Source: Escherichia phage CMS-2020a
Strand: one strand, 5' to 3'
DNA: 64,000 nt
Sequence record: CP053388.1
A program made the position numbers and the translations under genes. The notes below the pieces were generated by a model, which worked only from the letters and a program-made list of their open reading frames with translations, was not told where the DNA came from and made no database searches. Of this stretch, positions 17,637-21,775 are shown in pieces. Each line of letters begins with the position of its first letter. Positions within the stretch are counted from its first letter, which is position 1.

Positions 17637-17809
17637 ATGACAATCACCGAGTTACGCCGATTCACTGTATAAGTAAACAGTATATTAGGCATAGATTCTT
17701 ATAGGATCAAGAGTAAAAGTAACTCATTTTCACTAATGATTCCATACATAGTAGGTATGGAATCATTTAAGGGAGGAATTTAAATTCTGAGGCGTTATTA
17801 ATATGATTG

Positions 17810-18220
17810 TTAAGGGTTAGTGAGAGCTTGAAATGCGGCCGCGTAGGCAGCGATATCGACCATAATTTTTGGATCTTTCGCGTACTGATGTGCGTTGTTA
17901 GGGAAGATTGCCAATAGGCTATACACATCTTGGAAATGTGCATGTTGACTGTAAACGAGTGCACGGTCGCTTGTGCAATTGAATCTGCTGCGGCTGCTGG
18001 TTCGTTCTTGCTTCGTGAACAAGAGATGAACGTGATAGACGCGGGAGGACACGATAGCACCAGGAGCCGTATACGGGCCATCTTTGCCGAATATGGCTGG
18101 GTACATGCCTTGTTTAAACGACTTGAAATCGTTGAGTAACGTAATCTCTAAGTCAGGCTTTATATCGAAGGTCGGCTTTAAAAATTGGGCGTAACTATCA
18201 CTGTTCCATGTGATCTTCAT
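17810..18220 (-). CDS. YafO-like toxin candidate
   Basis: motifs RVYHVHLL, FNCTSDRALVYSQHA, LLAIFPNNAH match my recollection of E. coli YafO; recall-based only. Confidence 0.45.
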   Translation of the reverse strand: MKITWNSDSYAQFLKPTFDIKPDLEITLLNDFKSFKQGMYPAIFGKDGPYTAPGAIVSSRVYHVHLLFTKQERTSSRSRFNCTSDRALVYSQHAHFQDVYSLLAIFPNNAHQYAKDPKIMVDIAAYAAAFQALTNP

Positions 18221-18229
18221 CGTTCAACC

Positions 18230-18838
18230 TCAATGGAATGAGAAGTTGGCGAAGACGTCCTCATCAATGAGGCCAGTCTGCGATTCGATGACGTCTACGT
18301 CGTTAAAACACTGATTTAAAATCAATAGCAGATCAGAGATAGCTAAACGATACTCAGTTACAGAATCGCTCAAGCGTTTCAAATATGGATGAGGTTGCTC
18401 AGAGTCGCGAATCAACTTGTTAACGAATCCCTCCAAACCACGAATGGTCAGGTCAACGTTCTTCAGTTCTTCGTAACGACTTTCACCGAAGTTGCTGCGA
18501 ATCTTTTCCGCTTTCCATCCAGAGATGGCATGGGCTAAGCGAACGTGTTTCGCCGTCAATTCTGCGAGCTTGCTTTCAATCTTTGCCAGCTGTGCCGCAT
18601 CGCGGTTTTCTTGAACAGGAATAGCCGCAGTGCTCACATAGGTTTGTGTTTTGAATCCTGTGAATTTCGCAGAGGGCTTCATCGTGCCACGGAAGCGTCG
18701 ATATCCACGCGGTTCAATAAAATCACGCCCAGATTTAGCTGTAGGCTTTGCGTTTGAAAAGCGTGAAGCGTTAGAGGTCACAGTAGCAAGGGCATTGCTA
18801 ATGACACTCATATCTTCTAGGCAATTTTCTAAACGCAT
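18230..18838 (-). CDS. hypothetical protein (202 aa), upstream partner of YafO-like gene
   Basis: ORF 9 bp upstream of toxin candidate on same strand. Confidence 0.45.
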   Translation of the reverse strand: MRLENCLEDMSVISNALATVTSNASRFSNAKPTAKSGRDFIEPRGYRRFRGTMKPSAKFTGFKTQTYVSTAAIPVQENRDAAQLAKIESKLAELTAKHVRLAHAISGWKAEKIRSNFGESRYEELKNVDLTIRGLEGFVNKLIRDSEQPHPYLKRLSDSVTEYRLAISDLLLILNQCFNDVDVIESQTGLIDEDVFANFSFH

Positions 18839-18933
18839 AAAACCTCTTAACTGCTCAATGGCTCGTAACTAAGTGTACGCTGTGCTGATGAAAGCTACAA
18901 ATAATAAATGGCCCCAAAAGGAGCCGTATTGTA

Positions 18934-19179
18934 TTACAGAGTGCTCGCAAAAGCAGCAAATTCTGTGTATCCGCCAATCGGCTGGCCATCGATCAGCACC
19001 TGGGGGATCGTCTCTACCGGTTTACCAACAATTTCGCTAAGTTTTTCCTTCTCGATACCGGCAGTGGTGATGTCGATGTACTCATAATCACCGTAGCCAT
19101 GTCCCTTTAGTTGCTTCGCCAGCTCGACCGCACGTTTGCAGTATGAGCAGTTATCTCGTCCGTAGATAGTGATCGTCAT
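18934..19179 (-). CDS. glutaredoxin / NrdH-like redoxin
   Basis: CSYC active-site motif near N-terminus, 81 aa thioredoxin-fold length. Confidence 0.8.
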   Translation of the reverse strand: MTITIYGRDNCSYCKRAVELAKQLKGHGYGDYEYIDITTAGIEKEKLSEIVGKPVETIPQVLIDGQPIGGYTEFAAFASTL

Positions 19180-19352
19180 AACTTAACAGATGCCTTTATA
19201 AATATTGATTCGAACATATCAGACTATACTACAAACAGATTTTTTTGATAAGTATGTAGTAACTTATTGATTGACTAGTAAGCAATTGAAGTGATTACGA
19301 CAATAGATTAGAGTAAGGATTGCCTTGAAATGTACATTTTATAGAGGTTTTA

Positions 19353-20261
19353 ATGATTGGTAAGTTGTCTGATTCTTTGATTGAAAATAAATACAACGAA
19401 TTTAGAGAAGAAATATCTTTACTTTTTGACTATTTAAATCAGATAAATGATACAACAAAGAAAAATATAAAACGTCTTCTTAAAGAAGTGGAGTATGCAC
19501 AGAATCCAGATACTATTATTAATATTAATGAAACTATTAAGATTAAGTGTGGCACAACGTTAGCTCGCCATTTATGTTCAAACCCATATACAGGTTCAAC
19601 ATTAGAGATAGGTAACAGCGCCATTGATTTAGAAGAAAAGATAAGATTGTGTAATACTTTGAAAAATAAACAATATCAGTGGGTTATTACTGAAGCCTAT
19701 GAGTTACTGGAAGACTATATTGAGGCAATATATGTCTATACTGTATGTGTTCGAAATGATTTATGGTCCTCAAGTGATTTTGGTAAGGTTGAAGATGATG
19801 AAATTGGGAAAAGGGAAGTTTATTACAGATTATTAAAAGCAAAAAGTAACCCATCGAAAAAAATAACTAAAATTTTCAGAAATAAAATACCTGGTTTCAA
19901 AGAGATAGAAACAAACAACAAGATTGGCAAAAACTATCGCTTTAACATCAAGCTAATTGAACTACTAAGACATACAATAGTACACAATAGTGGACGATTC
20001 AATGATACAGAAAAATTTATAAATAAGGTTTTAGATGAATCTGAAATAAACGGTAAGAAAAGAGTTATTGGAGAAAGAGCTGTTAGAAGTTACATTACTA
20101 AAGTGCAAGAAGATGATATTGTGATGCTCTTAGAAAGACCATCTGAAATTTTAGGTTCTTTTGGTGGGTATTTTAACAGAGCAAAATTTTTACTAAGTGA
20201 TATTTTAGAATACTCACTAATCATTAAAGAAGAACTAAAATCATATCTAGGCAATCATTAA
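19353..20261 (+). CDS. AT-rich foreign gene; HEPN-motif protein, possible Abi-like abortive-infection/defence protein
   Basis: GC content visibly far below neighbours; own AT-rich upstream region and terminator; RHTIVH fits Rx4-6H HEPN motif. Confidence 0.5.
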   Translation: MIGKLSDSLIENKYNEFREEISLLFDYLNQINDTTKKNIKRLLKEVEYAQNPDTIININETIKIKCGTTLARHLCSNPYTGSTLEIGNSAIDLEEKIRLCNTLKNKQYQWVITEAYELLEDYIEAIYVYTVCVRNDLWSSSDFGKVEDDEIGKREVYYRLLKAKSNPSKKITKIFRNKIPGFKEIETNNKIGKNYRFNIKLIELLRHTIVHNSGRFNDTEKFINKVLDESEINGKKRVIGERAVRSYITKVQEDDIVMLLERPSEILGSFGGYFNRAKFLLSDILEYSLIIKEELKSYLGNH

Positions 20262-20265
20262 CAAA

Positions 20266-20287
20266 AAAGGGGCCGAAGCCCCTTTGA
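20266..20287 (+). terminator. intrinsic terminator AAAGGGGC-CGAA-GCCCCTTT plus T-run
   Basis: GC stem-loop and T tract 5 bp after stop of 19353..20261. Confidence 0.7.
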
Positions 20288-20439
20288 ATTTTGCGCTGAA
20301 AAAAGTGTTGCTAGGATGTTAGCAAGCTATGGTTAAGAACGTCTGCCGTAATTGTCTATCACAGCGTTGAGCGGTCTGGTTTATGTTAGCGGAGTCTTAA
20401 TCTGGTTGATTAAAAGGCCAAACCGCTCAACGCTGTGTC

Positions 20440-20526
20440 TGGCGGAGAGTAATGGAATCGAACCATCATCGCTTGCGCAATGGGACGGTTTTCAAGACCG
20501 CTTGAGCACCATGCTCCCTACTCTCC
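20440..20526 (-). tRNA. tRNA-Ser (anticodon TGA), type II with long variable arm
   Basis: hand-folded: acceptor GGAGAGT/ACTCTCC, anticodon loop CTTGAAA, T-loop TTCGATT, encoded CCA; D-arm somewhat atypical. Confidence 0.55.
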
Positions 20527-20750
20527 GGCCGTTGTGGTGGCCGGTACTGAATCTCCGGCATACGGTGCAGCCAATTAGGACTACGGACGATCACCGCTCG
20601 CGAAAGGGAAGATTTGCGGCCGCATTTCCCTAACACCCAAGAAAGCTATCGCATCAGTCTGCGAATCCACCACAACGGTAAGATCACTACCTTTCGACCA
20701 GTCATTGTGCACATGAACGACGATTAACCGTAATGATCTTATCGTTGTAT

Positions 20751-20826
20751 TGGTGCCGGTTAACGGACTCGAACCGCTGACATCCTGCTTACAAGGCAGG
20801 CGCTCTACCAACTGAGCTAAACCGGC
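20751..20826 (-). tRNA. tRNA-Thr (anticodon TGT)
   Basis: hand-folded cloverleaf: acceptor GCCGGTT/AACCGGC, D-stem GCTC/GAGC, anticodon loop CTTGTAA, T-loop TTCGAGT, CCA encoded. Confidence 0.8.
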
Positions 20827-20830
20827 AATT

Positions 20831-20917
20831 TGGTGGGGAGTGATGGAGTCGAACCACCCGAGTCGCCATGACAGTAGATTTACAGTCTACACCGCTACCT
20901 CTACGGACTAACTCCCC
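20831..20917 (-). tRNA. tRNA-Tyr (anticodon GTA), type II
   Basis: acceptor GGGGAGT/ACTCCCC, anticodon stem-loop GTAGA-CTGTAAA-TCTAC, long variable arm, T-loop TTCGACT, CCA encoded. Confidence 0.7.
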
Positions 20918-20922
20918 TAAAT

Positions 20923-20997
20923 TGGCGATGGTGGGTGGATTCGAACCACCGACCAGTTGGTTAACAGCCAACTGCTCTACCGCTGAGCTACACCATC
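20923..20997 (-). tRNA. tRNA-Asn (anticodon GTT)
   Basis: clean cloverleaf: acceptor GATGGTG/CACCATC, D-stem GCTC/GAGC, anticodon loop CTGTTAA, T-arm GGTGG-TTCGAAT-CCACC, CCA encoded. Confidence 0.85.
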
Positions 20998-21775
20998 AAT
21001 TCGGCACTGCCAGTATTTATTACTCAACAGTGCCAATCGCGACGGTTTAGTTTCTGCCAGGAAACGCACCGCTACTTGCACTTTTCGTTAGTGCCAGACG
21101 CTTTCGACTTCGCTCAATAGTAGAAGGCAAAATCTTTAAGTAGATGATGTTTCTGAGGACAGCACCTACTTTGTTATTTATACAATGTAATGTATGGAAT
21201 CATTTGTTGTGAAAACAGGCACCAATGGCAACAGTGGTTAAACCTACACAACAATCCTGTCTTCACAACGTTGAGGCCACTACTCCGATTGAATGTTTGC
21301 CCAACATGTTACATATCAACGCTCGCCGGTATCTCTGTGAATAGAACCTTAGAATTGATAAAAATGTAATGGCCTCAACGTTGTGTGCTGGCTAACCATA
21401 CCAGCCGGGCTACGTCGCCGCTTTTTAACCCAGTATAAACGACATAATTGAACAAAATGACGTAACAGGATGGGCGGTCAGTGGCTAAGAATCCGGGAGT
21501 CATATGGAGTTGAAAATATACCGACCGCCCATTCTGTTACTTCATCGGAGGGAACACTCATGTTCCCTCCTGCGTTCTGCAATCACACTCGCTCAGTGTG
21601 TCCCATTTCGGTAACGAGGCTGGAAACTGACCTCGCTGGTGTTTGGCTTATTAGGCTACTGCCAGATAGACTTCTTCGTTTGCACTTGTATTTAAGTTCA
21701 AACAGTCGCGTCTCAACGAAAACAAAGTCATCTTATACATAAAAGATAAGTAAGTAAATACTTATCTTTGTGTTT

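Follow-up and report, generated by a model that had tools for sequence, protein, structure and literature searches.

The HEPN site, as described by Anantharaman et al. (2013; PMC3710099), consists of an Rx4-6H motif with N, D or H directly after the Arg, placed where helix 3 ends and running into the following loop, together with a conserved acidic residue in helix 2 near the motif, typically in the form Ex3[K/R], and a variable insert that separates helices 2 and 3. In E. coli, RnlA/LsoA and PrrC/RloC are R/H-dependent ribonucleases (RNases) of mobile elements and defence islands that are freed by phage infection (PMC3710099); RnlA/LsoA have the RnlB/LsoB antitoxins as dedicated partners, and PrrC/RloC the EcoprrI restriction-modification system and ABC-ATPase domains. 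Stand-alone HEPN proteins are represented by the abortive-infection (Abi) types Abi_2 (AbiD-AbiF), AbiJ, AbiU2 and AbiV. For a free HEPN RNase, some control, such as an antitoxin, is normally required, and P2/P4-like temperate elements carry alternative defence genes at a fixed position, an arrangement called a defence hotspot. Here we analyze an open reading frame (ORF) at positions 19353-20261 of a 64,000-nucleotide stretch of the Escherichia phage CMS-2020a record CP053388.1 (hereafter the window), which lies between a glutaredoxin gene and a tRNA cluster. We are very confident that the ORF is a real, mobile accessory cassette gene, and the slot that it fills has the pattern of a cargo hotspot of SSU5-like phage-plasmids; as the best explanation of its product we tentatively propose a stand-alone HEPN-like RNase acting in defence or in competition between mobile elements, a combined reading to which we give slightly less than an even chance.

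The window is a part of an E. coli SSU5-like phage-plasmid of the pECOH89/pHCM2 type, in agreement with an earlier note on this DNA that had taken the replicon for a phage-plasmid, and the cassette region is at least 99% identical in 23 non-mobilizable E. coli plasmids of 108-120 kb, pECOH89 among them. The backbone around the cassette (dnaE-type polymerase, CobT-like protein, repressor, integrase, glutaredoxin, tRNAs, DNA ligase and primase) is common to phages Cyrano and CMS-2020a, with SSU5 more distant, and the ORF is opposed in strand to all of its neighbours, including the replication and early genes. The same note had described the ORF as much more AT-rich than the flanks and its upstream region as AT-rich, and a windowed calculation of G+C content (GC) confirmed both points: GC is 0.292 for the ORF (0.225 at third codon positions, GC3) and 0.277 for the 173 bp upstream (19180-19352), compared with 0.496 for the glutaredoxin gene and 0.509 for 20262-21000. 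No other 909-bp stretch of the window has a GC as low as that of the ORF (mean 0.470, standard deviation 0.035).

The boundaries of the cassette are sharp. Homology with phage Cyrano, which does not carry the gene, ends exactly at 19179, i.e., at the start codon of the glutaredoxin gene, and restarts at 20262, one base past the stop codon of the ORF, the Cyrano interval between the same borders being 389 bp. Compared with a sister plasmid whose allele is 56% identical, identity is 95-100% in the flanks and only 61-76% at positions 19200-20200; alleles found at the same position and in the same orientation are 56-59% identical in E. coli and about 40% identical in Klebsiella. The SSU5-type ligase was found on 413 plasmids of PLSDB (220 from Escherichia), and homologues of the ORF on 58 plasmids (29 from Escherichia, 27 from Klebsiella, 1 from Citrobacter and 1 from Pseudomonas). 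Some of these copies appear damaged: that of CP012114.1 (E. coli) aligns in three pieces and several Klebsiella copies span residues 67-299 only, which suggests that the gene is occasionally inactivated.

To survey the slot, 80 SSU5-like viral contigs were gathered via the glutaredoxin protein, and 61 of them had both slot borders. At least 26 cassette configurations were found among these 61 loci, and several occupants are on the same strand as the ORF and likewise AT-rich. The family of the ORF itself, including the Klebsiella allele, occupies 8 loci. The commonest occupants (19 loci) are proteins of 420-450 aa with a hydrophobic N-terminus, whose alleles are 30-77% identical; these AT-rich membrane proteins are also encoded on 131 PLSDB plasmids, where all are named "hypothetical", they had no significant match in PADLOC (one match at E 0.0009), and we regard the family as another candidate conflict gene. 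In two loci, a 403-aa ORF comes after a homologue of AbiGi (288 aa, PADLOC E 5e-47); two others carry a 529-aa ORF, and four the Cyrano-type 389-bp spacer, which has no ORF of 60 aa or more. The size of the 403-aa ORF is as expected for AbiGii. This is the pattern of a cargo hotspot, and it resembles P2/P4-type hotspots in the fixed backbone position, the many AT-rich cargo genes, the sharp boundaries and the presence of one known Abi gene. It differs from them in that it adjoins the tRNA cluster of SSU5-like phage-plasmids and in that most occupants are without known function, so that the narrower name of defence hotspot would be conjectural.

The protein belongs to PHROG 35492, whose function is unknown; all of its database copies are named "hypothetical protein", and a literature search on its accession gave no result. 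No family model of Pfam, NCBIfam or PADLOC matched it above noise. An exhaustive profile search, in turn, collected 453 cluster representatives at E <= 0.001, of which 142 were at E <= 1e-30; the length is almost always 280-330 aa, and there were no domain fusions in the best 150. Family loci are found in Gamma-, Beta-, Delta- and Epsilonproteobacteria, Bacteroidota, Treponema, Nitrospira, Aminicenantes and others, and in almost every one of 41 genomes from many phyla the GC of the family gene is below that of its locus (e.g., 0.31 versus 0.61). A match of residues 20-60 to PHROG 4452, "anti-restriction nuclease" (E 0.0027), was judged to be a compositional match of the N-terminal helix and was set aside.

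Conservation was examined by aligning 130 members, whose identity to the query is 17-59%. E117, R206 and H211 are the sole invariant columns, and R206 and H211 are invariant also in a second alignment of 33 sequences; N105, Q107, W110, Y127, W138, E186, N189, H207, V210 and G214 are conserved in at least 90% of the 130 members. Position 207 is H in 126 members and N in the other 4, and position 121 is mostly D, with K or R in 17. Conservation is focused on the helices 93-133 and 195-214, whose entropies are 1.99 and 1.77 bits, respectively, versus 2.5-3.1 bits elsewhere. The second of these contains the segment LLRHTIVHNSGRF (residues 204-216), within which R206-x4-H211 is found. The earlier note had pointed to this R-x4-H as a HEPN-type motif. 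Because approximately 0.2 occurrences of Rx4H are expected by chance in a protein of this composition, a single occurrence means little alone; its invariance in 130 homologues as divergent as these goes beyond chance, and the motif has thus proved to be an invariant core of the family with details of the HEPN type. As a separate observation, residues ~93-180 (window 19629-19900), the region of the E117 helix, have a recurrent weak similarity to the flavin-dependent halogenase CmlS (residues 353-435 of PDB 3i3l, profile E 0.005), the R/H motif being outside the match; the NCBIfam model halo_ClmS for this halogenase matches 8 of the 130 members at E >= 0.0013, and the similarity may be that of a shared helix-loop motif.

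An AlphaFold2 model computed from a deep alignment had a predicted local distance difference test score (pLDDT) of 93.7 and a predicted template modelling score (pTM) of 0.90. In its order, a helix of 49 residues (2-50) is followed by a beta-hairpin (69-91), a helix of 41 residues that contains E117 (93-133), an insert of short helices (134-194), the helix 195-212, a loop, further short elements and a C-terminal helix (276-300); the protein is thus predicted to be a long helical hairpin with a beta-hairpin at its tip, followed by a conserved helical core. The residues R206-H207-T-I-V-H211 form the last two turns of the predicted helix 195-212, and the loop after it has the near-invariant G214.

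In sequence and predicted secondary structure, therefore, the published description of HEPN is matched: the Rx4-6H motif is conserved, a polar H or N stands right after the motif Arg, the motif lies at the end of a predicted helix that runs into a loop, an invariant acidic residue is present in the preceding helix, and an insert separates the two helices. By a rough argument, E117 and H211 would be level with each other if their two helices form an antiparallel pair, since 16 residues separate the former from its helix end and the latter from its helix start. In these respects the family is also similar to the stand-alone HEPN Abi types, with which it shares the invariant R-x4-H, the H or N after R, the motif at a helix end, the acidic residue in the upstream long helix and the variable insert, as well as being a single, AT-rich and mobile gene near restriction-modification or defence genes. 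It differs from them in the 49-residue N-terminal helix, in the beta-hairpin that tips the first helical hairpin, in approximately 60 residues inserted after the motif and in an acidic residue without the Ex3[K/R] form. Judged from motif and topology, HEPN-type RNase chemistry is plausible, and we consider it evenly balanced.

Several observations weigh against the proposal of a HEPN-like RNase. The acidic residue departs from the usual Ex3[K/R] form, with mostly D at position 121 as noted above. The Pfam models of the HEPN clan matched the protein or the 130 members at noise level only: DUF3644 (PF12358) matched the protein with E 2.9 and 7.9 bits versus a cut-off of 27.6 (residues 182-223) and matched 3 of the 130 members (E >= 0.0065), and HEPN_Apea matched one member (0.022). 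The family consensus found nothing relevant in Pfam, the NCBIfam scan gave noise only, and PADLOC on the 130 members gave scattered sub-threshold matches (Csx1/Csm6 2, Cas13a 1, Cas13d 1). Profile searches of the PDB with the full length and with the core only found no HEPN chain, and Foldseek with the high-confidence model against PDB and BFVD found no match at E <= 0.001, its top matches being generic long helical bundles. No link by hidden Markov model (HMM), profile-profile comparison or Foldseek connects the family with any described HEPN family. The structure prediction proposed in the earlier note as a check for a HEPN bundle gave a confident helical model with the motif at a helix end, for which Foldseek found no HEPN fold. 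Neither a partner ORF nor an RNA family nor a repeat array that could control a free HEPN RNase was found, and many neighbours of the gene in other genomes are housekeeping genes. HEPN families are, however, notoriously divergent, and the Foldseek ranking is dominated by two very long helices, so that these negative results are compatible with a HEPN assignment, which we infer from the motif and the topology.

DUF3644, which alone among Pfam families reaches the motif region of the protein, was examined separately. In a single-sequence hhalign comparison with EC042_2821 of E. coli 042, RDQAVH is set on RHTIVH, and in the DUF3644 defence protein HEC-08 the motif His is required for defence (bioRxiv 10.1101/2024.01.29.577857). 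DUF3644 proteins are, however, ~435 aa with extra DNA-binding or REase-like domains, whereas members of the present family are ~300 aa without fusions, and hhalign against a purpose-built alignment of 44 DUF3644 sequences gave a probability of 0.8%. We therefore rejected this relationship, the R-x4-H motifs having been aligned in the single-sequence run only. RnlA/LsoA and PrrC/RloC likewise have no sequence relationship with the protein, and neither the antitoxins of the former nor the partners of the latter were found by the ORF; if the prediction is right, the ORF product would be of the same kind as these R/H-dependent RNases freed by infection.

The genomic context was examined next to the family genes of other genomes. 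Within two genes of a family member we found Gabija GajA (8e-238), MADS mad3, ToxN, AAA_21/AriA-like ATPases and FRG-domain proteins, as well as integrases, Bro-N and a P2 tail gene. An abutting gene on the same strand encodes a restriction-modification enzyme of the MmeI/Eco57I type and overlaps the family gene by 4 nt; other abutting same-strand genes encode an FRG protein, an HNH nuclease and a nucleoside-deoxyribosyltransferase-like protein. One E. coli homologue is a solitary chromosomal insert between tam/yneE and uxaB. The defence role suggested in the earlier note fits this context of defence-gene neighbours, as it fits the AbiGi-like gene in the same slot, and we consider a role in mobile-element conflict or defence likely. 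The Klebsiella plasmid p2 (strain Kp1604, OK644452) carries a 38% homologue. With the whole plasmid p2 present, three lytic phages plate 10- to 100-fold less well than on the cured strain; the gene responsible was left unmapped, and the authors suggested restriction-modification (PMC8969562).

Other explanations of the same data have to be weighed. The membership in Abi_2 (AbiD/AbiD1/AbiF, PF07751) that the earlier note had suggested can be given up as having next to no probability: the resemblance consists only of the similar length, the Rx4H and the stand-alone AT-rich mobile gene, and the HMM matches reported for the protein, for the consensus and for the 130 relatives do not include Pfam Abi_2, nor do the matches reported from PADLOC include its Abi models. 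The main rival, which we nevertheless regard as unlikely, is that of a conflict-related accessory protein with a new helical, non-HEPN fold, such as a different hydrolase, a sensor or a binding protein, in which H207 and H211 (HxxxH, on one face of the helix) and an acidic stripe of E114, E117, E120 and D121 would bind a metal or a ligand. It can point to the lack of any match to a HEPN family, profile or fold and to the several acidic residues strongly conserved on one helix, a stripe that HEPN sites do not need, and the mobile, AT-rich gene and its slot fit it equally well. The alternation of H and N at position 207 is, however, that seen at the residue after the HEPN Arg and would be unusual for a metal ligand, the invariant Arg just before it and the motif at a helix end also fit HEPN, and the DinB-like, HD and other metal-enzyme families are without match as well.

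The position beside the tRNA cluster raises the question of whether the gene serves the phage-plasmid's own life cycle, e.g., as an RNase for the adjacent phage tRNA transcripts or for host RNA during lytic growth, or in counter-defence. The SSU5-like copies of E. coli and Klebsiella do always adjoin the tRNA cluster and converge on it, and the family is found on 14 viral contigs. Outside SSU5-like elements, however, a tRNA was present within 8 kb at only 5 of 40 bacterial loci and at none of 11 viral contigs that are not SSU5-like; because the adjacency is confined to SSU5-like elements, it is a property of the backbone slot and not of the family. Moreover, the gene is dispensable, being carried by only ~13% (29/220) of the Escherichia SSU5-type plasmids, many copies are solitary and chromosomal, it points the opposite way to the replication and early genes, and the same slot can be filled by an AbiGi-like gene; we thus find a service to the phage-plasmid itself improbable. 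Still less can be said for the toxin of an addiction (toxin-antitoxin) module that stabilizes the phage-plasmid, which we hold to be very improbable. HEPN-like toxins are common in toxin-antitoxin systems (PMC3710099), and a YafO-type toxin module is present 1 kb away in the same accessory region, but there was no conserved partner gene across 38 bacterial loci, no conserved adjacent ORF of 25-150 aa in any orientation at ~40 loci, and neither MNT nor another antitoxin family that stands out among the neighbour families; an upstream repeat array or known RNA was likewise not found, and chromosomal copies are solitary. In a more elaborate idea, the slot would be a new defence hotspot and the present family a new stand-alone HEPN-like anticodon nuclease kept beside the tRNA genes of the element, whose Ser, Thr, Tyr and Asn tRNAs would be spares resistant to cleavage; these would protect the carrier and translation by the element itself, and invading phages would be starved of tRNA; we mention it as a long shot.

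To return to the HEPN-like RNase that we tentatively favor, the following course of events can be imagined. The ORF is an intact accessory gene on an AT-rich cassette, in a slot prone to recombination; a weak promoter of its own probably drives it against the backbone genes, an arrangement typical of genes expressed while the element resides as a plasmid prophage. In its product, E117 together with R206, H207 and H211 would form a metal-independent RNase site of the HEPN type, and the protein would be kept inactive until it meets a trigger, such as another phage infecting the cell. Once triggered, it would cleave RNA, whereby the infection would be aborted or competing mobile elements excluded. 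The data show the gene and its family, the invariant residues, the predicted secondary structure, the cassette boundaries, the polymorphic slot and the neighbourhoods of mobile or defence type. The HEPN fold, the RNase chemistry, the trigger and the defence phenotype are all parts of what we infer here, and it appears reasonable to regard the ORF as a member of a new, unnamed family of a known kind and as a candidate anti-phage gene.

The signals around the ORF are collected in Table 1. The Shine-Dalgarno sequence is present also in the closest allele. No plus-strand promoter for the ORF was called at the threshold of the consensus promoter scan; the weak sigma-70 site listed keeps its position in divergent alleles that are only 61-65% identical there. 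The ACTATA (-10) block of the minus-strand promoter-like site is conserved in all four aligned elements, and the 173-bp intergenic region appears to carry divergent promoters. In other alleles, different inverted repeats (TAGGT-N4-ACCTA; AAGTAG-N4-CTACTT) take the same alignment position as the inverted repeat listed, and because each allele has its own repeat at this one position, an operator or an RNA hairpin is suggested. Upstream of the copy in the window, no tandem or direct repeats and no Rfam family were found when a type III antitoxin or other RNA was sought. DNA of 29% GC is, in E. coli, a likely target of silencing by H-NS.

The earlier note had seen in the ORF an independently expressed insertion with a terminator of its own. 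The own orientation and the sharp boundaries of the cassette agree with this, but the terminator has to be taken away from it: because Cyrano homology restarts at 20262 and the hairpin is present in the gene-less Cyrano, the hairpin belongs to the backbone and lies outside the acquired unit. The scan calls it on the minus strand only, where T6 follows the stem, the tail on the plus strand being TTTGAATTTT; most likely it terminates the tRNA transcript and is used by the converging ORF as well.

Table 1. Coordinates of the ORF, its cassette, the surrounding signals and two other slot occupants (positions in the window unless a contig is named)
Feature	Position	Strand	Remark
Glutaredoxin gene	18934-19179	-	left border of slot
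Accessory cassette, 1.08 kb, control region and ORF	19180-20261	.	fills the glutaredoxin|tRNA slot
Promoter-like TTATCA-17-TATAGT	19223-19251	-	would drive the glutaredoxin gene leftwards; scan call
Inverted repeat ATAAGT-N8-ACTTAT, possible operator	19248-19267	.	lies between the divergent promoter sites
Putative weak sigma-70 promoter TTGAAG-17-TAGAGT	19286-19314	+	8/12 matches, below scan threshold
Shine-Dalgarno GAGG	19344-19347	+	five bases before ATG
ORF, 302 aa, ATG start	19353-20261	+	uncharacterised family with HEPN-like E...R[H/N]xxxH signature
Codon of invariant E117	19701-19703	+	putative active-site acidic residue, helix 93-133
Codons R206-H207-T-I-V-H211	19968-19985	+	putative catalytic R-x4-H motif
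G+C-rich hairpin, putative bidirectional terminator	20266-20285	.	between converging ORF (+) and tRNA operon (-); backbone DNA
tRNA cluster Ser(TGA), Thr(TGT), Tyr(GTA), Asn(GTT)	20440-20997	-	right border of slot
420-450 aa slot family, example	L075:4564-5826	-	homologues in L084, L086, L094, L096, L115, L129, L132
AbiGi homologue, then 403-aa ORF	L114:3652-5756	-	

Several further observations concern the neighbourhood of the slot. The tRNA cluster is polymorphic: that of the window has a 224-bp spacer between the Ser and Thr genes, and that of Cyrano consists of Ser, Thr and Asn, tightly packed. Parts of the cluster are ~93% identical to the clusters of the unrelated phage-plasmids P7 and D6. 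Immediately 3' of tRNA-Ser (minus strand), there is a 20-nt inverted repeat (20360-20379 and 20418-20437, 95% complementary, with a 38-nt loop), and no Rfam match was found for 20360-20437. A second accessory insert (17768-18952) lies between the integrase and the glutaredoxin gene, with ORFs at 17810-18220 and 18230-18838 on the minus strand. It encodes a YafO-family toxin homologue of 136 aa (Pfam E 5e-22), which is preceded by a 202-aa ORF without family match that may be its partner. This insert is absent from pECOH89 and Cyrano; Klebsiella relatives do have it, alongside colicin M and microcin-like genes.

Clinical E. coli, Shigella, Salmonella and Klebsiella commonly carry phage-plasmids of the SSU5-like type, and published screens have found few defence systems in them (bioRxiv 10.1101/2025.09.12.675607). 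If the ORF does encode an RNase-type defence protein, a widespread family of at least 453 clusters at 50% identity, distributed over many phyla, would have been missed by Pfam, NCBIfam and PADLOC, and a defined slot with further candidates of unknown function, such as the 420-450 aa membrane proteins, would be at hand; this would provide a short and testable list of genes for the phage sensitivity of clinical strains, with relevance to phage therapy. If the protein is not of the HEPN type, it is still a conserved and mobile protein with an invariant site of three residues and no known fold relative. The main value of the finding therefore lies in a testable candidate and in the pointer to a cargo hotspot in SSU5-like phage-plasmids.

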